Source of the DNA: a virus
Length of the DNA stretch: 43,823 bases
Reading direction: 5' to 3' (one strand)
IMG/VR virus record: IMGVR_UViG_3300045988_085211
Coordinates: 1 to 43,823 of that record
The stretch's first letter is position 1. Each line of letters opens with the position of its first letter. The notes under the pieces were generated by a model. It did not search any database. It saw only the letters and a list, made by a program, of their open reading frames with translations, and was not told where the DNA came from. Below are positions 1,178 through 43,823 of the stretch, piece by piece. Both the position numbers and the translations under genes were made by a program.

Positions 1178-1217
1178 AGTATACTCCCTATTCTTTGACT
1201 ATTTGTACCAAATAAGG
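1178..1217 (-). promoter_or_regulatory. Conserved TTGGTACAAAT element plus -10-like TATACT (copy a), heads the lysis operon
   Basis: - strand CCTTATTTGGTACAAAT, then 22 nt after TTGGTA, then TATACT (1183-1178). Confidence 0.55.
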
Positions 1218-1238
1218 GACACCCGAAGATGTCCCTTA
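1213..1238 (-). terminator. Intrinsic terminator after the fibre gene
   Basis: 9-bp stem TAAGGGACA/TGTCCCTTA with an 8-nt loop, followed by TTATTT on the - strand. Confidence 0.6.
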
Positions 1239-8082: not shown

Positions 8083-11000
8083 TTAAAATTCAAATGCTGG
8101 ATTGCCGGTTGCCCGGAAGTATTCGTTTGCTTTCTGCTGTGTCACACGGAAGATTCCATTCGGATCTCCCTCTACTTTAAATGTAACATTAACATTGTTG
8201 CCTTTTGTACCAATTGCAGATCTTACCGCCCGGTATACACCATCCGATACGGATGCTACAATCTGGTTATTGTTCATTACCGCTGTATGTCCACCAAGTG
8301 TGCCTACAAGCTCCGGTCCTGCTTCTCTCGCAATAAAAAGCTGCCCTGCCGGTGCATTCTCTGTGCCGACTGCATACTGGGTAATGTTGTGCCACATTCC
8401 ACCAGTATAAACTCCGCCAGTGGCTTTCTTCGTGGCTTTCGTACCTACATTTACGGATTTTCCACCGAAGAACGATGTAACCGAAGACCACAGATTGCTC
8501 AACGAATTTTTCACAAATCCGATTCCAATACTAACAACCTTTTTTCTGTTCGCCCAAGTCTTACTAAACGAATCCCATAATTTAGATGGTGTCGATGAAT
8601 CAGCGATCTTTGCTTTAAAATCCGCAATTTTGTCTTTTACACCTTTCCACTTTTTATGGAATTTACTCCATAAGTCTCCAGCATCAGATGCGATCTTGGT
8701 TTTAAAATCTGCGACTTTATCTTTCACACCATTCCAGTTTTTCTTTAAACCACTCCATAGATCAGATGCCTTTGTGGCAATTTTTGACTTAAATTCAGCG
8801 GTTTTATCTTTCACGCCATCCCATTTTTTCTTCAATCCGCTCCACAGATCAGAGGCTTTGTCCTTAATCTTTGTCTTAAATTCAACATATGTATCTTTGA
8901 CTTTCCCCCATCCTTTTTTCATTCCCTCCCACATACTCTTCATTAAATCTTTGAACTTTAATGATTTCATTTTGGAGGTTATTCCATTCCATACACCTTC
9001 TAGGATATACTTACCCATAGGCTTCATTTCTTTTGATGGAGAATGAATACCAAATGCCTTTTTAAAGGCTTTTATGAACGGATCAAAAATATTAGTTTTA
9101 ATCCATGTTCCAACATTTGCGAGAGCATCTGTGATTCCTGTAAATATTCCTTTTACAACACCACCACCGCATTCGTCGATTTTATCCTGGAAATATTGTT
9201 TTGCATTACTAAAAGCATTTCCTATAAGTTCTCCAATCGCTTTTGCCAGATCAAGTGCAGACTTCAGCGCAGTTCCAAGGAACTCTCCTATATCACTGGC
9301 TAATCCTTTCCAATCAAATCCTTTGAAAAAATCAGCAATAGATGTTCCAATATACTTAAGGGTCTCTTTCCAATTAATTTCCTTTATTGCTCCTGTAAGG
9401 AATGTAAATAAGGCATGAAGCGCACCGCTTATGGATTTTCCTATGCTCTTCCATTTGATTGCCTTAAAAAATGCTCCTATGCCATCAATGATGCCTTTGC
9501 CTAAAGACTTCCAATCTGTATTGTAAAAAAGCTCACTTAAGATCTCGAACAGTCCTGATGTAAAAGTTCCAAGTGTATCGCCAAGTCCTTTCCAATCAAA
9601 TGTTGTGAAAATTCCTGTCAGCGATTCTCCTATTGATTTTCCAAGCTTTTTAAAATCAAATGTATGTACAAATGTCTGTGCGAAGACAATTGCAGTATTT
9701 AATCCCTCCGCAATCGTGCTTCCAACAAGTTCCCAGTTCGTACCATCCAGAAAGCCATTTAAAAATGTAGCAATTCCACTTGCGATATGTTTTGTCTGTT
9801 TCTTAATGCCATCCCACGGAATCCCCTCTAAGGCTTCTGTCAGTTTTTTGCCAAGCATTTCTCCTATTTCCGACCAATCATCTGTCTTCAAAATGTCCTT
9901 GATCTTCTTTGCAAGGCTTTCAATCTTAGGATCAATATTTTCTGTAGAAAACATATCCCCTACGTTTGTTCCTCCGCCTCCTGAACCACCTCCCGAATCA
10001 GAATTGGAAGAGATAACATTCAACTCGTTAAACGACTGTAACTGACCTTTCAACTTACTTGCAGATTTGGTTGCTTTGTCCAACCCCGAAGCATAATCCT
10101 TTGTCTGCTTTTTCGCTTTTATCCATGTACTCTTTCCAGTTAGGGCAGATATAAACTGGTTAACCTTGTTGATTGCGGATGTAAGCATATTAACCAAAGA
10201 TGTAAGTGCAGGACCTACGGCCGTGATAATCGGGGCGGCTAAAGAACCGAATGCATTTTTAAGTGTGGCTATTGCACTTGTGAGCTGCGACATCTTTGCA
10301 TTGACATCACCGGAATACTTCGCCATATTCTGCGCTCCGTCTTTAATGGCGGATATCATAGCATTCCATCCCTTGGAAATCCAATTAAAGACAAACATCG
10401 AAAGGGCAATTCCATTTAATCTGGAAGCAAATGTCCCAAGCATTCCGCTGCCTTTCTTGCCGTGTGTGATAAATTTCTTGAAGGCACTTCCTGCGGATTT
10501 CAAACGAGATGCCAGTCCAGATACCTTCTCGCCGGTAGATTTTGCCTTAGATTTAAAAGAATCTAACCAACCTCGAGTCTTTTTTTCACTTTTTTGAGCT
10601 TCATTACCAGCACGTGCTTCCTCTTTTGCTATATTTTCGGCACTACTTGCCGTCGCTTCACCTTTCGTAGCTAAGCGATCGGTACTTGATGCCGCAGCTT
10701 CCTCTTTTGCAGATAACTCTTCAATTTTCTGAGATGTAATGTCCATCTGTGCATTAATTTCAGAAAGCTGTTCTGCTTTTTTCTGATACTCTGGAGATGT
10801 TTTTATATCATCAACACTTTTATAAGCAGTTCCGGAATCCAAATAATCCTGTGCTTCACCTCTTGCATACTCTAGTGATTTTGTGAGCTGATCTAAATCA
10901 TATTGCATAGATTTAAATGCGCGACTATCTGTTTTTCCACCAATAGCTATGAATTTCTCCATCCGCTCATTAAGACCATCCATTTTTTTCGTTGTATCAT

Positions 11001-15618: not shown

Positions 15619-16266
15619 TTATTTCTCCTTTCCTCGTCTCAGATATGGCGTAATGTCCATATCCGGGTTCTGATTTTTCAGTTTCATAAGCTCGGCCATA
15701 GACAGTTTTGCTCCGTCCGGCTGGCCAATGTTGTTCCCGACAATCTGGCTACGGTTCTGCTGTGCCTGGAATGTTTTATCGTCAATGAGGATATCCGGCT
15801 TGTAATTGCCCTTCTCATCCTTGACAATTGCATCAAACAGATCAGAAACGCTCTTACCTCTCGCTTCATCCGAATTAAGGGTTTCAACGAGCTGCTTCTT
15901 GATTGCATCCGCTGTAATAGCATTAACAAAATGCTTGTCGGCAAAGAAATCTGTCACAAGGCTGTCAAGTCTTGCAATCTCGTCCCTTTCCTTGCGCTCC
16001 TTACGCTCATTCTCGAGTGTTGCAGTCAAGTCCGCGATCTTCTGATTCAGCGCATCAGCATCCGGAGCAGCATCTTTCAAAGTCTGCAGTTCCTTTTCAA
16101 GATTCTCCTGTTTGGTTTCAAGCTCTTTTTTTTCATTTTCCAAGGTGGTAATCTTGTCATTTTTCTTCTGTACTTCCAGATCTGATACAAATTCCCCCGG
16201 AAAAGCCTTTTCAATCTCTGGTGTAATCTCAACACCAAGAGCTTTCAGTTTGTCGATAATATTCAT
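15619..16266 (-). CDS. Scaffolding protein (GP20-like coiled coil)
   Basis: 215 aa, highly charged heptad-rich sequence; precedes the capsid gene. Confidence 0.75.
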   Translation of the reverse strand: MNIIDKLKALGVEITPEIEKAFPGEFVSDLEVQKKNDKITTLENEKKELETKQENLEKELQTLKDAAPDADALNQKIADLTATLENERKERKERDEIARLDSLVTDFFADKHFVNAITADAIKKQLVETLNSDEARGKSVSDLFDAIVKDEKGNYKPDILIDDKTFQAQQNRSQIVGNNIGQPDGAKLSMAELMKLKNQNPDMDITPYLRRGKEK

Positions 16267-16345
16267 TTACAAGTTCCTCTCTTTCTTAAAAGTTGTTAAT
16301 CCGGTCAGCCCGGCACGAATGAGTTGCTATTTGATCCATAGCTGG

Positions 16346-16387
16346 CAAAACACAAATAAAAAGGCACGCCCAACAATAGGACGCGCC
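16346..16387 (-). terminator. Intrinsic terminator inside the scaffold-operon leader (T2)
   Basis: 9-bp stem GGCGCGUCC/GGGCGUGCC (2 GU pairs) followed by UUUUUAUUUGUGUUUU on the - strand. Confidence 0.6.
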
Positions 16388-16467
16388 ACATGGTTCATCC
16401 TATAACTTTTGTAGGTCAGCGAACGGATTCCTACGTTCCGTCCGGTGCTTATTCATTTGTTATATTA

Positions 16468-16507
16468 ATTTTATCATGGGATTATAAAAGATTTGTACCA
16501 ATTTTAG
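16468..16507 (-). promoter_or_regulatory. Conserved CTAAAATTGGTACAAAT element plus -10-like TAAAAT (copy b)
   Basis: 22 nt between TTGGTA and TAAAAT (16473-16468); lies just downstream of terminator T1. Confidence 0.55.
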
Positions 16508-16510
16508 ACA

Positions 16511-16540
16511 CGCAAAAAGCGCCTATATTTCAAGGCGCTT
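16511..16540 (-). terminator. Intrinsic terminator after the MuF-like gene (T1)
   Basis: Perfect 7-bp stem AAGCGCC/GGCGCTT followed by a T-run on the - strand. Confidence 0.65.
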
Positions 16541-16605
16541 CCCCTGAGTAATGAAAGTAATTGGGAGAACTATAAGATAGCAATTGGAATAAATCCGCTT
16601 GCAAT

Positions 16606-16648
16606 ATTATAATACACTAATCCATTTAATTATTTGTACCATTTTCAA
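16606..16648 (-). promoter_or_regulatory. Variant element AAAATGGTACAAAT plus TATTAT/TATAAT (weak extra copy)
   Basis: One mismatch to the core; 22 nt to TATTAT; overlaps the 3' end of the 16626-17885 CDS. Confidence 0.3.
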
Positions 16649-17885
16649 TTCTGTTTTTGAAAGCTGTGGCTCTGCCGTTTGCTCGCTTCGCTTGTTCTTT
16701 CTTGAATCCAGCAACTTTTACGCGGTCGCTTTGTTTCTGCAAGTCGTTTTCTGCACAGAATACACCGTAATTTCTATTCTGCATCCGGAGCTTGTATGCC
16801 AGCTTGTCATAATCTCCACGGATGTTCTCATCATCAGGAAACGCTTTCAGCTCCTGTTCTTTCACAAGCAACTGCCGTTTTGTTTTTCGGATAGCACGCT
16901 CCATTGCTCTTTGCTGTTGTTGCAGATCATATAACTGCTGGCTCTCATGCACATCAATTTTCGGGTTTCCATTCGCATCCACATACGGATTGCGTAAAGA
17001 CTTATCCCAAGGCTTATGTGAGTGCCGACAATTATACCCATGTAACCCTAGAGGATTAACCACATGCCCCTCTCCGGTCTGTGGATCTATATCATATCCA
17101 GTAGCTTCCAGAAGATTCGGTGCATCCGGATCAGAACCGCGAATCTTATATACTTTTCCCTGCCACCAATCGTGAGACTGCAAGCCTGTAGGGTTATTCT
17201 TGTCATGTCGCGCGCCCATATGCGCGGACACCAGAACATATTCTGCCCCAGCTTCCACAATATACTTATTCGTAACCTGTGCGGCGGTCTGGTTCATGGA
17301 TGTTACAATGCAACAGCGAACTGCGGCTTCCAACGATCTCCGGGAACCGGTTGGATAATCCACACGCATACCATTCTCCGCATACCGATCCAACACCTCA
17401 CAGATTGCACTACTATAGGACTGCAATCCGCTCGCCACACGAAAATCTACTTCGTTCAGAAGATTCAGCAGATCCCGTTGTGATTGGTCAATAGTCGTGT
17501 TTGTAAGATTGCTCAATTCTCCGAATGTTTTCATCAGTTCGGCATTCATGGCAACGATCACCATGTTGTTTTGTAGCGGTGGCTGCACATCTGCCAAACG
17601 TTCCAACACGCCCTTATCATCCGAAAATGAAGTAAGCACACTCTCTCGCAGCAACCGGCGCACTTCGTTCCGACTCTTGCCTGTCAGCTCCGAAATACGT
17701 TTTACAATCTCCTGTCTGTGTAAACCCATCTGCTGCAGCTTCCACAGTTCGCGGTCTGCTGTTCCGGATAGGCTCTCGGATTCTATCAAACGCATGGCAA
17801 TATCCTGCAAAATCCAATCTTCCAGCTCCTGGTACATCTCTATTAACTTGTCCGACTTACCATAAAAATAATCTGGAGTAAGCAT
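16626..17885 (-). CDS. Minor capsid/head morphogenesis protein (minor capsid protein 2 / SPP1 gp7-MuF-like)
   Basis: 419 aa following the portal block; N-terminus LTPDYFYGKSDKLIEMYQELEDWILQDIA is typical of the family. Confidence 0.7.
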   Translation of the reverse strand: MLTPDYFYGKSDKLIEMYQELEDWILQDIAMRLIESESLSGTADRELWKLQQMGLHRQEIVKRISELTGKSRNEVRRLLRESVLTSFSDDKGVLERLADVQPPLQNNMVIVAMNAELMKTFGELSNLTNTTIDQSQRDLLNLLNEVDFRVASGLQSYSSAICEVLDRYAENGMRVDYPTGSRRSLEAAVRCCIVTSMNQTAAQVTNKYIVEAGAEYVLVSAHMGARHDKNNPTGLQSHDWWQGKVYKIRGSDPDAPNLLEATGYDIDPQTGEGHVVNPLGLHGYNCRHSHKPWDKSLRNPYVDANGNPKIDVHESQQLYDLQQQQRAMERAIRKTKRQLLVKEQELKAFPDDENIRGDYDKLAYKLRMQNRNYGVFCAENDLQKQSDRVKVAGFKKEQAKRANGRATAFKNRIENGTNN

Positions 17886-20133: not shown

Positions 20134-20334
20134 CTACAATTTCATAGTAAATGCATTATCTTTCAGCAATACTCCGCGATCTGTCTCGGTAAATACCGGC
20201 TCTGTGCCTTCGTATACTTTCAATTCGACATCCTTCCGCAGAATATTCTCTTTGCCATTATCGGAAATACACGCAATCACTTCTCTTGATTCTTTGTCCA
20301 CAAGAACATAATGCTTACTCTTCATATTCTTCAT
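20134..20334 (-). CDS. Small hypothetical protein between terminase and portal
   Basis: 66-67 aa; RBS GAGGAGG upstream; overlaps the terminase stop. Confidence 0.45.
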   Translation of the reverse strand: MKNMKSKHYVLVDKESREVIACISDNGKENILRKDVELKVYEGTEPVFTETDRGVLLKDNAFTMKL

Positions 20335-22267
20335 CATCTGCCTCCTCGTCTATCTCATCATCGTAAAGTCCATTGTTGCGCCGGCTTTCCATAATCACAC
20401 GGTTCAATCCATAGATCAGCGCCATTACACAGTCCTCACCAATCTTTGGGTACGCATCTGAAAAGCTACCGTCTGCCAACTGCTCATGCTCCAAGGTTGT
20501 CAGCTCATGCGCAAGGTGCGGGCATCGCTCCGGATCAACCACGATCTTTGTGGTCTGTTGTAACCACTCCCAACAGTAGTCTCTACCTTTGCCAGATCCC
20601 CAGCGCTTTTTAGCACCGATCGCATTAAATCCCCAATCCTGCATCTCTGCGATAGCATCTGGGCGAGCAGAATCACAGATAATCTCCTCTTCAAAGTACT
20701 TCTTAATCTTCCGCGCAAATGTACTATTCTTGCACCGCTTGGCAAATACCTCTGCCACGCAATACAACGTGTCTGCATCCTCATCATAGTACGCAACCTC
20801 AAATGTCTGCGGATGCTCGAAACCGAAGTCTAAGCCATAATAGAGAAATGGCAGATTCTCGATCTCTGTGTCCGTGATGGTTCGCTCTTCCACATTGTCG
20901 AAGATACCGCCACCAGTCCCTGTTACTTCCCCAAGGTAATTGTTACGGTAATATAGCGGCTTATGCACCTTAAACCACTCCGCACGCTCGAAGAATCGTT
21001 TACCAAGCCATTTCACTGGCACATTGTAATAATAGCTGTGACACACTCTGGTCTGTGGTTTATTCCGGCACTCTTCCACATACTGGTTCATAAAGTTGTT
21101 CTTTGATTTCGGCGGGTTGAATATCTTTATATCGAGTGCATGGGTGTCCGATCTCAGGAAGGTGTCCTCTATATTATCCATCTGCTCCACACCTGCCATT
21201 TCGTCACACTCTTCGTGGATCAGCATCTTTACATATCCAAATGGCACATTAAACGATTTAAGGGAAATAGGCTTATCCGCCCCCACGAACATTACCATCT
21301 GTCCGGTTGGTTTATACACTGCACACATGGGTGATTGCTTAAAATCCCAGTTATCCAGATCATTGTACCGGATCACGGTTTTCATAAACTGGTTATACAC
21401 AGATCCACGCAGATCAACCTTGTATCGTCTGGTATATACAATATGTGCCTGCGGGTCCTGCCGGATGGTTTCATACGCCAAATCTCCCCAGAAGTTGGAT
21501 TTGATAGAACCACGCCCACCCTTAGACACAATCTCGTGCACATCTACCTCACCGGCAAATGCTTCGTGTACTGTCCGGTAAATCTCCACAAAGTCGGAAG
21601 TAATGTCTGTGATCGGTACAGTCCAAAGTGGTGCTTTCTCGCGCTTTTCCTTTTCCTCTCGCTCAATCTTCTGCTTTTTTGCAATGGTTAATGCCTTTTC
21701 TAAACCATCCATAGCCTTAAGCTGATTAGTGAAGTCCGGTGCAAATCCCCTATCGTCTGTTACCTCTCCCTTTGCTATCTTGCTTCTGCGCTCCTGTATG
21801 TCTGCAAGGCTCATAATGTCGCGATGCTGTTCTTTCTCGATACACTCCATTTGCTCGGCAATTCTCTCTGAAATATTAGGTTTCTTTAGATTCTCGTGTC
21901 CTGTTATTCCAGCCACCTTTTCAGAGTACCCCGCCGCCTTTGCCGCCTGTGTAGCATTTCCACCATTCTTGATGTATTCCGCTGCAAATGCTTCCTGCTT
22001 TGGTGTCAGCTTCTTTCCTGTAGTCTTATCTTTATTTTTTGAAACGTTGCGTTTCGTTTCATTTTTCTTTTGAAACGTTTCACTTGCGTTATCATCCCAT
22101 TTATATCTATTCTTCCATGTCCGGATAGTAGCATCAGAACAATTCAATTGAGTAGCGATATCGACCAACTTCATACCGCTTTTATACAGTTCATATGCTT
22201 TATCACTCAATGGATTCTTCCTTGCTGCCAACCGATCATCTCCTTTCCTGGCACTAAAAAAGGACAT
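20315..22267 (-). CDS. Terminase with small-subunit (HTH + Terminase_2-like) and large-subunit (PBSX/Terminase_3-like) regions in one reading frame
   Basis: LTPKQEAFAAEYIKNGGNATQAAKAAGYS (TerS signature), then Walker A GGRGSIKS and the TerL body, with no intervening stop. Confidence 0.85.
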   Translation of the reverse strand: MSFFSARKGDDRLAARKNPLSDKAYELYKSGMKLVDIATQLNCSDATIRTWKNRYKWDDNASETFQKKNETKRNVSKNKDKTTGKKLTPKQEAFAAEYIKNGGNATQAAKAAGYSEKVAGITGHENLKKPNISERIAEQMECIEKEQHRDIMSLADIQERRSKIAKGEVTDDRGFAPDFTNQLKAMDGLEKALTIAKKQKIEREEKEKREKAPLWTVPITDITSDFVEIYRTVHEAFAGEVDVHEIVSKGGRGSIKSNFWGDLAYETIRQDPQAHIVYTRRYKVDLRGSVYNQFMKTVIRYNDLDNWDFKQSPMCAVYKPTGQMVMFVGADKPISLKSFNVPFGYVKMLIHEECDEMAGVEQMDNIEDTFLRSDTHALDIKIFNPPKSKNNFMNQYVEECRNKPQTRVCHSYYYNVPVKWLGKRFFERAEWFKVHKPLYYRNNYLGEVTGTGGGIFDNVEERTITDTEIENLPFLYYGLDFGFEHPQTFEVAYYDEDADTLYCVAEVFAKRCKNSTFARKIKKYFEEEIICDSARPDAIAEMQDWGFNAIGAKKRWGSGKGRDYCWEWLQQTTKIVVDPERCPHLAHELTTLEHEQLADGSFSDAYPKIGEDCVMALIYGLNRVIMESRRNNGLYDDEIDEEADDEEYEE

Positions 22268-22285
22268 ACCGTTATGGTACATCCT

Positions 22286-22361
22286 CTTGGTAGTCAACCG
22301 GAATCGAACCGATGCCTTGTCTATCAACCTGTTCTGCCAGCCTAAACTATCTTCTACCAAG
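22286..22361 (-). other. tRNA-like element (acceptor stem plus canonical T-arm, no anticodon arm)
   Basis: CTTGGTAG...ATCGG-TTCGATT-CCGGT...CTACCAAG; 76 nt; fills the gap upstream of the terminase start. Confidence 0.35.
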
Positions 22362-22790
22362 ATAATCATACCATATTTTCTTTGCTCTTGCTACCATCTT
22401 CTTCTCTTCAACATTTAGTTTTGTTGCGCCCTTTTCTCCATCTCTTTCATTGTGATAATACCCATGATGCACATGCGGATCTAGTTCTGCATGCTTATGT
22501 CCAAAGTTTATTTCTTTTACATGTTTGTTTTCTTTATCGAAATAAACTATTTTCAATAAATCATTTCCGCCAACTACAGCATAGACCCTCCCTTTTGTCA
22601 TGGTTTCAAAAAGACTTTCTGATTTTCTTGAATTTGATTCTATAAATTTTATATTTCCTGATACCAAAGGTTTTCCATTCACATCCATGATTGAGTGAAA
22701 TTGTGATCCATATTCATTACCTCTATTGCTTATGCCACTATTGGCTCCTCTACCGCCCACTTGATCACTCCTTACTCCACTTTCCATCAA
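22347..22790 (-). CDS. Hypothetical His-rich protein
   Basis: 147-aa ORF; GHKHAELDPHVHHGYYH cluster; start uncertain because it overlaps the upstream gene. Confidence 0.5.
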   Translation of the reverse strand: MMESGVRSDQVGGRGANSGISNRGNEYGSQFHSIMDVNGKPLVSGNIKFIESNSRKSESLFETMTKGRVYAVVGGNDLLKIVYFDKENKHVKEINFGHKHAELDPHVHHGYYHNERDGEKGATKLNVEEKKMVARAKKIWYDYLGRR

Positions 22791-23382: not shown

Positions 23383-23407
23383 GACCTAATCCTTTCCTCA
23401 TACCATA

Positions 23408-23446
23408 ATTATAAAGCAGGATTTCAGATGATTTGTACCAATTTAG
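23408..23446 (-). promoter_or_regulatory. Conserved CTAAATTGGTACAAAT element plus TATAAT (copy c), heads the packaging operon
   Basis: 22 nt between TTGGTA and TATAAT (23413-23408); lies just after a terminator. Confidence 0.6.
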
Positions 23447-23451
23447 GGCAT

Positions 23452-23481
23452 GAAAAAAGAGAGGTCAAACGATCCTCTCCT
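23452..23481 (-). terminator. Intrinsic terminator after the 3-TM protein gene
   Basis: Stem GAGAGG/CCTCTC followed by TTTTTT on the - strand. Confidence 0.65.
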
Positions 23482-23492
23482 TTATTAGTACC

Positions 23493-24116
23493 TTATGCAT
23501 CCTCTTGATTTAAATCGGTTGCCGACATAACGACATTAACTACACCATATTCTTCATCCGTTTTGCTTCCATCATCACAAATGTTTTTATAATGTGCTTT
23601 TTCCTCCTCTGAAAGCATATCATGCCAATCCATTTTGCATGTACTTATTCCACCTTGAATATACTTTATTTGATCCATCGCGCCACTCAACATAAGTTTC
23701 GTATTAGCATCTAAGTTTTCTTCGTCTTGTATGTATTGTTCAATTTTCTTATACGCTGTATTAGCTGCAGATTCAATATAATTTATATGTCGAAATGAAC
23801 GTAATGCCAATTCCTCTTCTTGATTCTTAAATTCAACTTTTGATGATTTTTTTGTTAGCAACCAAGAAAAAACCACACTACCAAAAACATTAATCGCCAC
23901 GGAAGCAAACAATTCTAATTTATGAATTGTTGCAAAATATATTGACCCTACAACAATCAAGAGAGAAAAGACCAATATAAAATTATCCAAATTGACATAC
24001 ATTTTTCTTAGAAATTCATATAAGTTCATATTCTTCGGTCGAATACGCCCCAATATAAAACCAAATACAATGCCTATGCAACACGAAATAATAGCATATT
24101 TAATATCTACTGCCAA
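23493..24116 (-). CDS. Uncharacterised 3-TM membrane protein with helical C-terminal domain (candidate toxin/effector partner of PanA)
   Basis: TTG start overlaps the upstream stop by 10 nt; TM helices at aa 8-25, 46-64 and 69-87; no family recognised. Confidence 0.6.
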   Translation of the reverse strand: MAVDIKYAIISCCIGIVFGFILGRIRPKNMNLYEFLRKMYVNLDNFILVFSLLIVVGSIYFATIHKLELFASVAINVFGSVVFSWLLTKKSSKVEFKNQEEELALRSFRHINYIESAANTAYKKIEQYIQDEENLDANTKLMLSGAMDQIKYIQGGISTCKMDWHDMLSEEEKAHYKNICDDGSKTDEEYGVVNVVMSATDLNQEDA

Positions 24117-24553
24117 TTTTTGTCTATCCTTTCACCGTAATAATCTCTCATATTTTTTAGTGATATTGGGTTTCTAGAATATGTGCTAGAATCACAACCA
24201 ACTCTCGCACTTTGCCACGGCATCTCCGAATGTGTCATCCGTTCCAAGGTATCCGCATCATAATCACCATATGTGCTATAAACTTGATTCAAAAATACTC
24301 GAATGCCTTCATTATTAAATTTAATATCATGCGTGCATCTAGGTATATTTTCCCATCCCCACCCACGATAACGACTGTATAAATCTGGCGAAACAGGACC
24401 GTGAACCCATGCTTCAAATCTGTTTGGGAACAATTGTTTTCCATAGTTAGCCAGATACCACGCTTGTGCATAATAACATAATTTCTGAAGCTTTTTATGC
24501 GACATAGATTCTTTGCTCAAGAAAAAATCCGCAACTTCATAAATGTTTTCCAT
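24107..24553 (-). CDS. DUF4065/Panacea-domain (SocA/GepA-like) antitoxin-type protein
   Basis: KLQKLCYYAQAWYLANYGKQLFPNRFEAWVHGPVSPDLY signature; RBS AAGAGGGA before the ATG at 24553. Confidence 0.75.
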   Translation of the reverse strand: MENIYEVADFFLSKESMSHKKLQKLCYYAQAWYLANYGKQLFPNRFEAWVHGPVSPDLYSRYRGWGWENIPRCTHDIKFNNEGIRVFLNQVYSTYGDYDADTLERMTHSEMPWQSARVGCDSSTYSRNPISLKNMRDYYGERIDKNWQ

Positions 24554-24600
24554 AAGCGTCCCTCTTTCTCCCGTAAATTCACAACCCATTTGGTATTATT

Positions 24601-24629
24601 ATATTAGCATATGCATAAATAGGTGTCAA
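24601..24629 (-). promoter_or_regulatory. Near-consensus sigma-70 promoter for the PanA/3-TM pair
   Basis: TTGACA (24629-24624), 17 bp, TGcTAATAT extended -10 (24609-24601). Confidence 0.65.
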
Positions 24630-24664: not shown

Positions 24665-24907
24665 TTACCACACCATCCTCAACTGACCGTTCGGCTCTTC
24701 CACGATACGCCCCAACCTCTGCTTCATGATCCTTTGCGCAATCCTGCGCTTCCTGTAAAAGCAATTCCTGCTAATCGGGAGAATACCGTGGTGTGCTTCC
24801 AGCATGTCGTAGCTTGTCCCGATCACGATGGATTCTGTCAGCTCCGCGGCAATGAAGCTGTCTACTTGGTTGCAGATCTCGAATACTTCCTTTTCGTCCA
24901 CAGGCAT
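24665..24907 (-). CDS. Small sigma-region-4/ArpU-RinA-like HTH regulator (tentative late activator)
   Basis: 80 aa; C-terminal ISRNCFYRKRRIAQRIMKQ resembles sigma-like phage late regulators; lies upstream of the late genes. Confidence 0.4.
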   Translation of the reverse strand: MPVDEKEVFEICNQVDSFIAAELTESIVIGTSYDMLEAHHGILPISRNCFYRKRRIAQRIMKQRLGRIVEEPNGQLRMVW

Positions 24908-24976
24908 TCCCCCTTTCAATTTTTGATAAAAAAATACCAACCATCGTATTTGACGGTTGGTAATATACCTATATAT

Positions 24977-32156: not shown

Positions 32157-32885
32157 TCAACCGCCAAGCAACTTTCGCTCCAAGGCTTCAAAGTCCTGCT
32201 CTCTCGGAGTAAAGTTATTGAATTTATTCTGTGTGGATGCCTTATTGTCCTTAAGGGGGAATAAGCCTTTCCAACTGTTCATGATTGACTGCTCCAGAAT
32301 CTTAACTGCCGTATCTGAATTACCACCGGACAACTCCGTCAGTTTCTTGATAGCCATTCCAACAGCACGATCAGTCATCGGAGCTTTGATCTGCTTTCGT
32401 ATATCGACAAAATCAGCAAATGCCTGATTCAGCTTTTCATCCTCTGGGAAGAAATCTTTTTTGGTATTTTTTTCTTTATTTCCTTTCTTCCCTTCTTTCT
32501 TTTCTTCTATTGTTGTCGTTTGAATGTCGTTAGAATGTCGCTTGCTTGGCTCTTGACTGACGCTTTGCTTGTCGTTTGCTTGGTACAAATCGTACTTAAC
32601 CACTGAAAATACTGTGAATTTGTTTGTCGTTTTGCTTGTCACTTCGCCTGTCATTTTCAAATGTGAAATTGCAGTGCGAATTTCCCTTTCTGTAAGTCCT
32701 GTTTCACTTGCAAGCTTTCCAATGGAAGAAACAAAAGAGCCTCGAGGAACAACCATTCCTTTAAAATTTCCATCCTTCCAATTAGCTTTTAACAACATGT
32801 GGATGAATGCCCGTGTTGTATTAATATCCGAATACCATTCCCAATCCAGAAGTCCGCGGCTCAATTTAATGTAACTTCCATCCAA
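32157..32885 (-). CDS. DnaD-domain replication initiation/replisome organiser protein
   Basis: N-terminal YIKLSRGLLDWEWY wHTH-type and C-terminal DnaD/DnaB_2-like FADFVDIRKQIKAPMTDRAV..SWKGLFP. Confidence 0.7.
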   Translation of the reverse strand: MDGSYIKLSRGLLDWEWYSDINTTRAFIHMLLKANWKDGNFKGMVVPRGSFVSSIGKLASETGLTEREIRTAISHLKMTGEVTSKTTNKFTVFSVVKYDLYQANDKQSVSQEPSKRHSNDIQTTTIEEKKEGKKGNKEKNTKKDFFPEDEKLNQAFADFVDIRKQIKAPMTDRAVGMAIKKLTELSGGNSDTAVKILEQSIMNSWKGLFPLKDNKASTQNKFNNFTPREQDFEALERKLLGG

Positions 32886-38013: not shown

Positions 38014-38053
38014 CTAAAATTGGTACAAAATTTGCTTTTCATTATGATAAGTT
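38014..38053 (+). promoter_or_regulatory. Conserved CTAAAATTGGTACAAAA element (copy d) with TATGAT 17 nt after TTGGTA
   Basis: Same 16-17-nt element as copies a-c, but on the + strand upstream of the 38119 gene. Confidence 0.5.
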
Positions 38054-38118: not shown

Positions 38119-38319
38119 ATGACTTCTCTTTCTGAGAAAGCTTTAAAACTTCTTCAAGCTAAAGCCGATACAGGAGTGACCGAATTTCACGATCTCGATA
38201 TCATGATTCCTCTTGGTCTTTCCTTTCCGGTTGTCAGTAACGTAATTGCTGAACTTGAAAAAGAAGGATGCATAGATGTTGACCGTCAATATGTCCGCTC
38301 ACGTATTACATTGATCTGA
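38119..38319 (+). CDS. Small winged-helix-like protein on the + strand
   Basis: RBS GGGAGGTGA 7 nt before the ATG; 66 aa. Confidence 0.55.
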   Translation: MTSLSEKALKLLQAKADTGVTEFHDLDIMIPLGLSFPVVSNVIAELEKEGCIDVDRQYVRSRITLI

Positions 38320-38590: not shown

Positions 38591-38605
38591 TGCACGTTTT
38601 GTGCT
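38591..38605. promoter_or_regulatory. Operator-like inverted repeat TGCAC-N5-GTGCT (O3)
   Basis: TCGTGCACGTTTTGTGCT is nearly identical to the site at 38828-38845. Confidence 0.5.
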
Positions 38606-38830: not shown

Positions 38831-38845
38831 TGCACGTTTCGTGCT
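38831..38845. promoter_or_regulatory. Operator-like inverted repeat TGCAC-N5-GTGCT (O2)
   Basis: Lies between the leftward -10 box and the cro RBS. Confidence 0.5.
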
Positions 38846-38881: not shown

Positions 38882-38895
38882 GCACAATTTGTGCA
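38881..38895. promoter_or_regulatory. Operator-like inverted repeat AGCAC-N5-GTGCA (O1)
   Basis: Abuts the -35 box of the leftward promoter. Confidence 0.5.
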
Positions 38896-42445: not shown

Positions 42446-42602
42446 TAAAACCGCCCTGCTCTACCAAAGCAAGGCGGCAAGCTCCCGAATGATACGAAAG
42501 CCCTAAGCAAGCATATTGTATCATTCTCGGAGCAGCTACGCAAGCGGAACACCCGTTCCACGCTGGCTGTTATTTTTATACACAATTTTAAGGAGGTACA
42601 AT

Positions 42603-43610
42603 ATGAATGCAAGAAAATTACCATCCGGATCTTGGAGAGCACGGCTCTTTCTGGGTGAGGATGAGCAGGGAAAGAAACACTACAAATCTTTTACAGCTCC
42701 AACAAAACGCGAGGCTGAAAAGCTGGCTCTTACATACGAAGCAGAGCAAGCAAAGGAAAATGATATCTCTTTCGGCAAAGCTTACGAAAATTATTTGGCA
42801 CTAAAATCTAATATTCTGTCTCCTTCTACGCTACGCGGTTACCGGCAAATGGAAAGCTATTTTAAAGAGATTAAAGACATAAGAGTGTCAGATATAGATC
42901 AGGAAACTGTCAAAGCCTTTATCAATAAGTTTGCGGGGAAATATTCGCCTAAAACTACACGTAACTGCTATAGCCTGCTTTGCGCTGTTATTCGTTCCGA
43001 AATTCCGAATGCAGACTTTAAAATAACGCTTCCTCAAAAAGAAGTGTTAACCTACTACATTCCAAAAGACCAGGAAATAAAAAAGATCCTTGATTACACA
43101 AAAGAAAAGAATTATGACCTATACATTGCAATTTTGCTCGCTTCTATTGGCACCCTACGTAGATCAGAAATTTGTGGTTTGACGATCTCTGATGTCGATG
43201 GTAACATAGTACATATACACAATGTTGTAGTTAAGGGGCCAAATAAAGAATGGGTTCTTAAACAGGTACCAAAAAATAGCACGTCTGACAGATATGTGGA
43301 ATATCCCGATTTTGTTATTTCGGAACTTCCAAAAGAGGGGAAACTTTGTAACCTGAATCCCGATAGGATCACAAACGAGTTTGGACGCGCTTTGAAGAAA
43401 CTTGGATTGCCACATTTTCGTTTTCATGATCTTCGCCATTATGCAGCTACAATTATGCATGCAATGGGTGTGCCAGAAGCATATGTAATGGAGCGTGGGG
43501 GGTGGAAAACAAATACAACTCTAAATCAGGTTTACAGAGGAACACGTTCTGATTTTTCAAAAAAATATGCGGCCCAGACAAATGCATATTTCGGAAAACA
43601 TCTAAGCTGA
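42603..43610 (+). CDS. int: Tyrosine recombinase/phage integrase with N-terminal arm-binding domain
   Basis: RBS AAGGAGG; KLPSGSWRARLF arm-type N-terminus; HDLRH..GGWKT..VYRG catalytic region. Confidence 0.95.
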   Translation: MNARKLPSGSWRARLFLGEDEQGKKHYKSFTAPTKREAEKLALTYEAEQAKENDISFGKAYENYLALKSNILSPSTLRGYRQMESYFKEIKDIRVSDIDQETVKAFINKFAGKYSPKTTRNCYSLLCAVIRSEIPNADFKITLPQKEVLTYYIPKDQEIKKILDYTKEKNYDLYIAILLASIGTLRRSEICGLTISDVDGNIVHIHNVVVKGPNKEWVLKQVPKNSTSDRYVEYPDFVISELPKEGKLCNLNPDRITNEFGRALKKLGLPHFRFHDLRHYAATIMHAMGVPEAYVMERGGWKTNTTLNQVYRGTRSDFSKKYAAQTNAYFGKHLS

Positions 43611-43636
43611 TTCGTGTCATCTTTCGTGTCATCTAA
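43611..43636 (+). promoter_or_regulatory. Tandem TTCGTGTCATCT x2 (putative integrase arm-type sites), right copy
   Basis: Identical to 59-84; begins at the base after the int stop codon. Confidence 0.5.
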
Positions 43637-43699
43637 TTTAATTTTCGGGGTTCTGATTTCGTATTTTATCTTTGCAATTAGAATTTGAAATTATAGAAA

Positions 43700-43749
43700 A
43701 ATCCAGTATTTACAAGGATTGTAGCGTTATCCATTGCAAATACTGGATT
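43700..43749. repeat. 12-bp perfect inverted repeat AATCCAGTATTT ... AAATACTGGATT in the att arm
   Basis: Arms at 43700-43711 and 43738-43749 with a 26-nt spacer; 20 nt upstream of the core. Confidence 0.85.
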
Positions 43750-43768
43750 GTATAAAAAAGAGCTTTAT

Positions 43769-43823
43769 CGGGTTCAATTCCCGTCATCAGCTCTTTTTTT
43801 ATGCCTAAAATAAGGCATTCTTA
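43769..43823. repeat. Terminal direct repeat copy 2 (att core, or circular-assembly overlap)
   Basis: Exact identity with 1-55. Confidence 0.9.

Follow-up and report, generated by a model that had tools for sequence, protein, structure and literature searches.

The late operons of a Lachnospiraceae prophage are headed by predicted promoters that lack a -35 element and carry an asymmetric box of conserved sequence in its place. The window analysed here is the whole 43,823-nucleotide (nt) stretch of IMG/VR virus record IMGVR_UViG_3300045988_085211, positions 1 to 43,823, and represents a prophage of ~43 kb. The box, with the core TTGGTACAAAW, stands at a fixed distance from a -10 element before the packaging, head-tail and lysis operons, recurs at the same positions in related phages, and varies at one base together with one residue of an 80-amino-acid (80-aa) protein encoded at 24665-24907. 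The likeliest account, held with some reserve, is that this protein activates the late promoters. In the best reading, it belongs to a new family of late-gene activators that would bind in place of the -35 element and work like the RinA/ArpU (Ltr) regulators. From the comparisons set out below we infer binding to the box, activation rather than repression, late timing and contact with RNA polymerase.

The window phage is a temperate siphovirus of Roseburia/Agathobacter (Lachnospiraceae). Its early, replication, packaging, head, tail and lysis genes lie on the minus strand between ~38900 and 85. Those for immunity and integration occupy the plus strand from 38962 and include an XRE repressor, an ImmA-like protein and an integrase (42516-43610). 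The closest named relative is Roseburia phage Jekyll (LR596902.1), and a genome scan found homologues of its marker protein confined to genomes of Roseburia, Lachnobacterium and further Lachnospiraceae. To our knowledge, late-gene control is essentially unstudied in phages of strictly anaerobic gut Firmicutes. A literature search found no paper on this motif or these promoters.

Sequence, spacing and conservation of the box

The 11-mer TTGGTACAAAW has six exact matches in the window, where an earlier note on this DNA had placed them, against 0.03 expected from shuffled sequence. The enrichment claimed in that note is therefore real. The composite pattern TGGTACAAA-N18-TANNNT likewise gives six matches (0.00 expected), five of them at gene starts or boundaries, namely sites A, B2, B1, C and D. 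Relaxing the core to two mismatches produced no further composite matches in the window, with 0.95 expected. The note had also described a 16-17-nt element at four sites. This description holds at 16491, 23431 and 38014, whereas site A (1201-1217) has only the 11-nt core in common with the 17-mer, and promoter B1 had been overlooked. When up to three mismatches are allowed, the 17-mer is found at 16491, 23431, 38014, 8203 and 16632-16648.

Three of these promoters, all on the minus strand, head the late operons. Box C (CCTAAATTGGTACAAAT; 23431..23447) spans -43 to -30 of the promoter for DUF4417, a fused terminase and the portal. Its -10 element, TATAAT, lies at 23408..23413, with a predicted start near 23401 (A). 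Box B2 (CTAAAATTGGTACAAAT; 16491..16507) belongs to the promoter of the scaffold/capsid/tail operon, and its -10 element TAAAAT (16468..16473) has TGA in front, an extended -10. Box A (TTGGTACAAAT; 1201..1211) serves the lysis cassette, which comprises a 100-aa protein, an r1t-type holin and an amidase; its -10 element is TATACT (1178..1183), a hexamer found in all A-type relatives. Starts are predicted near 16461 for B2, near 1171 for A and near 16602 for promoter B1. Pfam assignments of the genes that follow A, B2 and C agree with these roles: r1t-type holin and amidase after A, scaffold and capsid after B2, and DUF4417 then terminase after C.

Exactly 22 nt separate TTGGTA from the -10-like hexamer at A, B2 and C, as first reported. 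No match to a canonical -35 element exists at any of the sites. The note had stated that the geometry does not fit a canonical -35 box. A better description is that the box has its 3′ half, ACAAAT, at the position of the -35 hexamer, with a 17-base-pair (bp) spacer to the -10; this half agrees with TTGACA at one position only.

Terminator hairpins stand immediately upstream of all three boxes, with z-scores from -2.8 to -4.1. The hairpin and U-run before box C (23455..23483, minus strand; -13.5 kcal/mol, z -2.8) end a toxin-antitoxin insert. The hairpin before B2 (16514..16543, minus strand; -15.6 kcal/mol) is kept in relatives. The hairpin that ends the head-tail operon before A (1213..1238, minus strand; -17.1 kcal/mol, z -4.1) has a weak U-tract that reaches into the box itself. 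The element had been said to lie always just after a terminator; this is so at A, B2 and C and not at B1 or D.

Conservation in related phages, proposed earlier as a check, was examined in Jekyll and ~150 related Lachnospiraceae phage loci. A search via the 24665-24907 protein retrieved 74 IMG/VR loci. The element occurs at the same positions in Jekyll and the related loci. Spacing was assessed on 38 TGGYACAAAT sites, a non-redundant set drawn from the window, Jekyll and 80 related loci. TAnnnT is found at offset 18 in 35 of the 38 sites and in none at offset 17 or 19, despite differing spacers. A 68-site matrix has the form AAa-TTGG(T/C)ACAAAT-c at -43 to -29, followed by 17 nt and TAwaAT at -12 to -7, with TG at -15/-14 in ~45% of sites and T/A at -1/+1. 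Several of its positions are conserved though they lie outside the search pattern, namely A at -43 and -42, T at -40 and -30, A at -8, and T/A at -1/+1. This last feature fits expectation, since transcription should start 7 nt after the -10 element. The matrix also has a T-rich stretch at -58 to -52, which reflects the upstream terminators.

Individual relatives retain the arrangement in detail. Jekyll has equivalents of C, B1 and B2 with the same 22-nt spacing, and all three carry TTGGCACAAAT or ATGGCACAAAT, with one base changed. These Jekyll boxes lie on the minus strand of LR596902.1, at 24428-24438, 16454-16464 and 16320-16330. The equivalent of box C in Jekyll is TTGGCACAAAT, at the position that the box occupies in nearly all of the 74 related loci. 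In nearly all 74, TTGG(T/C)ACAAAT lies on the coding strand downstream of the regulator gene, while spacers and first genes differ. In phages with the regulator on the same contig, homologues of the first lysis gene are preceded by TTGGTACAAA(T/C)-17 nt-TATACT. The more distant homologues of other phages are preceded by a hairpin alone, without the box. The same holds for the gene after site D. Its 86%-identical relative in locus L196 is preceded by ATGGCACAAAAT-16 nt-TAAAAT, which retains the 22-nt geometry, whereas relatives at 43% identity have a plain TTGATT-17-TAAAAT promoter. On these sequence comparisons, the box appears to go with the regulatory system of the phage and not with the downstream gene. 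For searches in IMG/VR, an exact scan with the 14-mer AAATTGGTACAAAT returned mainly unrelated chance matches, and the longer composite pattern worked.

Jekyll (L121) carries a further box at 43796-43841 on the minus strand. It has the correct geometry (ATGGCACAAAAT-16 nt-TATAAT) and lies upstream of a 53-aa gene (43616-43777) that adjoins the integrase. The box factor may therefore also control a gene beside the Jekyll integration module, possibly an excisionase.

The 24665-24907 protein and residue 48

The gene at 24665..24907 (minus strand) encodes the 80-aa candidate box-binding activator. It is the last conserved gene before the DUF4417/terminase operon and has the same place in Jekyll and the 74 related loci, often with accessory genes between it and the packaging operon. 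Its counterpart in Jekyll is VUE37364.1. Among these loci, which were retrieved by protein, nearly all have the homologue 25-5200 nt upstream of a packaging-type box. A motif-first scan of IMG/VR led back to the protein: wherever a packaging-type box has 1 kb or more of upstream sequence, a same-strand homologue lies 25-2500 nt upstream of it. The same box is kept by homologues at 50% (L306 type) and 36% (L364 type) identity.

The earlier note had named two candidate regulators. Position, co-occurrence with the box and covariation of residue 48 with base -36 all indicate the protein encoded at 24665-24907. The other candidate, 38119-38319, appears to be a target rather than the regulator; it lies itself downstream of a box, its close relatives are found in 17 IMG/VR loci only, and its 43%-identical relatives have an ordinary promoter.

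Residue 48 is the first variable residue of the last helix, and it covaries with box base -36. Promoters that go with Asn48 regulators have T at this base in 47 distinct cases and C in one. With Arg48 regulators the preference is reversed, T in one and C in 26, and with Ser48 or Thr48 regulators T and C are mixed. The protein of the mosaic locus L177 joins an Asn-clade N-terminus to an Arg-type helix and is accompanied by C boxes. The side chains of Asn and Arg classically pair with A:T and G:C, respectively, and we infer that residue 48 contacts base pair -36.

The AlphaFold model of the protein has four helices, at residues 5-15, 20-29, 33-40 and 47-66, with a mean predicted local distance difference test (pLDDT) score of 79; N48 starts the last, long helix. 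Searches by sequence and by structure connect the family to no protein of established function. No Pfam or NCBIfam match was obtained for 20 family members even at an expectation value (E) of ≤5, and a sequence search found no relative in the PDB. The protein weakly but consistently matches phrog_11237, a family of unknown function. No significant match was obtained with Foldseek in PDB and BFVD, and the best viral matches are uncharacterised gut-phage proteins. The non-significant Foldseek matches to sigma factors, at chance level, are 8jzt_E (template modelling (TM) score 0.49-0.55, E 6) and a phage protein labelled as an extracytoplasmic function (ECF) sigma factor (TM 0.53, E 4). Alignment of the family with Escherichia coli sigma-70 region 4 by hhalign was not significant. 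The assignment of the protein as a sigma region 4 or a RinA/ArpU-type domain was accordingly dropped and is retained as a resemblance only, since PDB, Pfam, NCBIfam, Foldseek and hhalign all gave no significant match.

Gut metagenomes commonly contain the family, in 635 clusters at 90% identity, and only 51 clusters matched at 50% identity among 1.8 billion representatives. A genome scan with a narrower family alignment reached 6 species-level genomes only. For a distant, N-terminally extended subgroup (P0161, P0163, P0165), no loci were found in viral or metagenome contigs. Loci L155 and L379 each have two regulator paralogues.

Directly upstream of the regulator gene lies a strong terminator hairpin (24935..24962, minus strand; -16.9 kcal/mol, z -5.0) that is conserved in most relatives. 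The terminator and its U-run are located 20-30 nt upstream of the ribosome-binding site of the gene, at 24925-24970 (minus strand) in the window and similarly in most of the loci L122-L195. It comes in two alternative sequences, ACCAACC...GGTTGGT or AACCAAGT...ACTTGGTT, and the genes before it are unrelated between phages.

On the other side of the gene, between it and box C, the window has a two-gene insert (23493-24589, minus strand) that encodes an antitoxin-like protein with a SocA/Panacea domain and a 207-aa membrane protein. The insert has a promoter-like site (24601-24629) and a terminator of its own. In relatives, the slots on either side of the regulator hold varied cargo of 0-5 kb.

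Proposed mechanism, alternatives and known systems

The late promoter is composed of a sigma-A-type -10 element (TAwaAT, often TGn-extended) and, with no -35 element, an asymmetric box instead. Since the -10 elements are of the sigma-A type, the host holoenzyme would be the polymerase used. The box occupies the site of sigma region 4 at an unvarying distance from the -10, which would place the protein in a fixed register with polymerase. The C variant breaks the partial GTAC symmetry of the box, so the site is asymmetric, and probably one unit binds it. For the same reason, a dimer site of palindromic form (TTnGTACnAA) was rejected.

In the proposed mechanism, the 80-aa protein, as a single unit, would use its C-terminal helix to bind the box, with residue 48 reading base pair -36, Asn with T:A and Arg with C:G. 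The bound protein would recruit or complete the host RNA polymerase, either by touching sigma-A region 4 or by replacing it on the DNA. The terminators before A, B2 and C would split the late region into packaging/portal (C), head-tail (B2) and lysis (A) units that are fired separately. Because these terminators insulate the units, each would rely on its own box. The same factor would also drive a short RNA from B1 and the small immunity-region gene at D. A bolder and rather doubtful version has the protein stand in by itself for sigma region 4 on host sigma-A polymerase, needing no AsiA-type co-factor and with its specificity largely in residue 48. If this were true, it would represent a minimal, reprogrammable sigma-appropriation module, so far of Lachnospiraceae phages only, mainly of Roseburia.

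Several points weigh against activation by the 80-aa protein. It has no significant match to any DNA-binding family by sequence or fold, and its helix-turn-helix character is our reading of a model and a sequence pattern. Its gene directly follows a strong terminator, and no promoter of its own is visible. The covariation is partly confounded by shared ancestry, as the clades are related and independent switches are few, and Ser48 or Thr48 regulators occur with either base. The leader terminator after B2, described below, makes further control of the head-tail genes likely. Finally, an extended -10 is present in about half of the promoters, and these might need no factor at the -35 region in order to fire, which fits a repressor too.

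According to this last alternative, the box is a repressor operator. The -10 or extended -10 elements would suffice for promoter activity, and a phage protein at -43 to -29, either the 80-aa one or some other, would hold the promoters off until late. With TG at -15/-14 in ~45% of promoters a -35 element may be dispensable, and a box that overlaps the -35 region is in a classic operator position. Even so, a repressor needs mere overlap with the promoter, whereas a spacing held at 17 bp in 35 of 38 sites, and off by one base in none, points to stereospecific contact with polymerase. The remaining half of the promoters have neither TGn nor a -35 match, and the end of the early region, where the regulator gene lies, is the place of known late activators. 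Repression at the box is unlikely on this evidence.

The position of the box at the -35 element could also mean that its reader belongs to the host, as an alternative sigma factor or a Lachnospiraceae transcription factor, to which the 80-aa protein would be unrelated. The narrow host range of the phage group would suit this explanation, and the C variant TTGGCAC is similar to the -24 element of sigma-54 promoters, in which TGGCAC at -24 is followed after 5 nt by TTGC at -12. A sigma-54 promoter was nevertheless rejected: no GC -12 element is found at the sigma-54 spacing, and a sigma-A-type TAwaAT hexamer follows the TTGGCAC boxes at the fixed 22-nt distance instead. Moreover, the T/C variant goes with the phage's own protein and not with host genus, and motif-first matches outside the phage group, among the viral contigs scanned, are nearly all chance-like. 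A host factor is accordingly quite improbable.

The earlier note had left three kinds of phage-encoded factor in play, a late activator, a sigma-like factor and a Q-like antiterminator. Comparative evidence favours the first. For the third, the box would be the loading site of a protein that makes polymerase terminator-resistant. Q-binding elements of lambda, 82 and 21 Q likewise lie in the promoter region. A strong terminator (16363-16387) follows B2 by ~75-100 nt, before the scaffold gene, and the regulator gene itself is behind a terminator. Yet A and C have no terminator before their first genes, the leader terminator being present at B2 only. The other terminators precede the boxes and the operons restart after them, the opposite of a read-through logic. 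The promoters also lack the canonical -35 of the constitutive Q-target promoters, and the 80-aa protein has no similarity to Q families. Promoter type, terminator placement and protein all differ from lambda-type Q, although both would act as a late-gene switch at the promoter and B2 shares the promoter-proximal terminator. There is little to recommend a Q-like reading.

A complete sigma factor can be set aside as well, as the -10 elements are of the ordinary sigma-A type and 80 aa cannot supply region 2, so that the protein is no sigma factor on its own. No sigma, RinA, ArpU, DUF1492 or other known late-regulator domain was found in any early-region protein scanned. One likeness to sigma-70 region 4 and ECF factors, in geometry only, is the box at the -35 position with a 17-bp spacer. 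In our reading, the segment SYDMLEAHHG-ILPIS-RNCFYRKRR resembles a region 4.2 helix-turn-helix, and the structural matches to SigF and the 'ECF sigma' phage protein (TM ~0.5) are weak.

The weakest explanation, that the repeats are non-regulatory module-boundary sequences kept by recombination among mosaic phages, has in its favour that boxes lie at junctions of exchangeable modules alongside which morons accumulate, but it is scarcely credible, as 11-15 conserved bp are too short for homologous exchange and the fixed distance to the -10, the single orientation with downstream genes and the conserved start context are properties of promoters.

Activation by the 80-aa protein most closely resembles the late switch of the Ltr superfamily (RinA, ArpU, LtrA sigma70_r4-like, LtrB DUF1492 and LtrC), the late regulators of Gram-positive phages. 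An Ltr site consists of 2-4 direct repeats of 7 nt, placed right next to the ltr gene on its distal side (Quiles-Puchalt et al. 2013, PMC3753634). Ltr systems and the present one both involve a small phage protein whose gene ends the early region just upstream of the packaging genes, with a terminator and a tightly regulated promoter between regulator gene and late genes. In both, the regulator is specific for its own DNA site, and a C-terminal DNA-recognition region is proposed. Unlike in Ltr systems, the protein has ~80 aa rather than ~100-140, and no sequence or hidden Markov model relationship to phage_rinA, ArpU, Sigma70_r4, DUF1492 or LtrC was detected. The site is a single asymmetric 11-15-bp box at the -35 position, 25-5200 nt from the gene, and accessory genes often lie between regulator and first target. 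The targets here are at least three separately promoted late operons and two extra sites, in contrast to the one terS-to-lysis operon of Ltr phages. The system works in an Ltr-like manner and falls outside the superfamily on family sequence and site type.

Other activators replace the -35 element and act through sigma region 4, among them PhoB (pho boxes), T4 MotA/AsiA (middle promoters) and lambda cII. Their promoters likewise have a good -10 and no -35, and a specific box takes up the -35 region, its distance to the -10 being fixed. The sites of PhoB and cII are, however, repeats bound by dimers or tetramers, and the MotA box is centred at -30 and requires the co-factor AsiA, whereas the present box is single, asymmetric and centred near -36. 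No homologue of these activators was detected, nor any Pfam domain matching MotA/AsiA in the early-region proteins scanned; an AsiA-like partner was not specifically looked for.

The analysis provides a model of the promoter, names a candidate regulator whose family is unannotated, and predicts a specificity that links one residue to one base. All three are directly testable in Roseburia intestinalis L1-82, where mitomycin C induces the prophage Jekyll. If correct, the regulator would be a fifth, structurally distinct solution to the RinA/ArpU-type late switch. The promoter model would allow annotation of late operons and adjoining accessory-gene slots in hundreds of gut prophages, and the regulator/box pair could become a compact orthogonal activator/promoter tool for Lachnospiraceae, for which few genetic parts exist.

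Leaders, additional sites and neighbouring features

The leaders of A and C are short, ~20-30 nt, and have no terminator between promoter and first gene. The B2 leader (16267-16461, minus strand) is ~195 nt long and near-invariant in relatives. It consists of two hairpins followed by a terminator hairpin (16363..16387, minus strand; -17.6 kcal/mol), after which ~95 nt remain before the start codon of the scaffold gene at 16266. Covariation in this leader is scant because its sequence is near-invariant. Head-tail expression seems to need read-through of the leader terminator. Rfam had no matches at gathering thresholds in the window, and only chance-level matches at 16200-16700.

Four relatives (L124, at about 8460-8530, L126, L128 and L132) have an insert of ~70 nt behind the terminator of the B2 leader. 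It contains a T-arm like that of a transfer RNA (tRNA), GCAGGTTCGAATCCTGC, and an acceptor-like end; ARAGORN predicts no tRNA there. The window contains no tRNA genes.

Promoter B1 (16609..16642, minus strand) consists of the box ATGGTACAAAT, 17 nt and TATTAT, and overlaps the stop codon of the minor-capsid gene. It is situated 141 nt upstream of B2, with no terminator before it, and is also present in Jekyll and 14 further loci. Transcription from B1 would yield an RNA of ~85-90 nt that ends at 16514-16543, the hairpin that terminates both the packaging operon and the short B1 transcript. In this region (16510-16605, minus strand, in the window; 16345-16435, minus strand, in Jekyll) the body of the RNA is variable and a single-stranded CCUCCUUU is kept, as UCUCCC in the window. 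This stretch is complementary to a Shine-Dalgarno sequence, so the B1 RNA may act late, as a small RNA by which translation of a target is blocked. A small open reading frame opposite the B1 RNA was rejected, as reading frames are inconsistent among relatives.

Site D (box CTAAAATTGGTACAAAA; 38014..38053, plus strand) lies in the immunity/early region before the small gene 38119-38319. TATGAT is found at 17 nt, as described before, and TAAGTT, which that description omitted, at the 22-nt distance whose geometry L196 retains. Two other copies of the box lie inside genes. On the minus strand, a box-like match with TACATT at 22 nt (8180..8213) falls within the tape-measure coding sequence, where it encodes the codons I-G-T-K. 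As a conserved promoter, the site at 8203 was rejected, as most relatives are without it; probably it is a side effect of the coding sequence, or else an accessory promoter. An antisense copy (32580..32590, plus strand) has no -10 at the right offset and stands among iteron-like repeats in the replication-organiser gene.

The terminase encoded after box C (20315-22369, minus strand; 684 aa) holds the domains of both subunits in a single reading frame. Its small-subunit part comprises Terminase_2 (residues 121-227) and a helix-turn-helix, and its large-subunit part is Terminase_3 (residues 280-481).

Three exact 13-bp palindromes, GCAC-N5-GTGC, are located at 38592-38604, 38832-38844 and 38882-38894, around the divergent XRE repressor and Cro-like genes. 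With up to one mismatch, the pattern has nine matches against 2.1 expected, and all three exact copies are near the XRE/Cro-like genes. These palindromes probably serve as operators of the immunity switch. The replication origin is probably at 32510-32655 (plus strand), where the replication-organiser gene (32157-32885) contains at least five iteron-like repeats (TTGTCGTTTG and variants).

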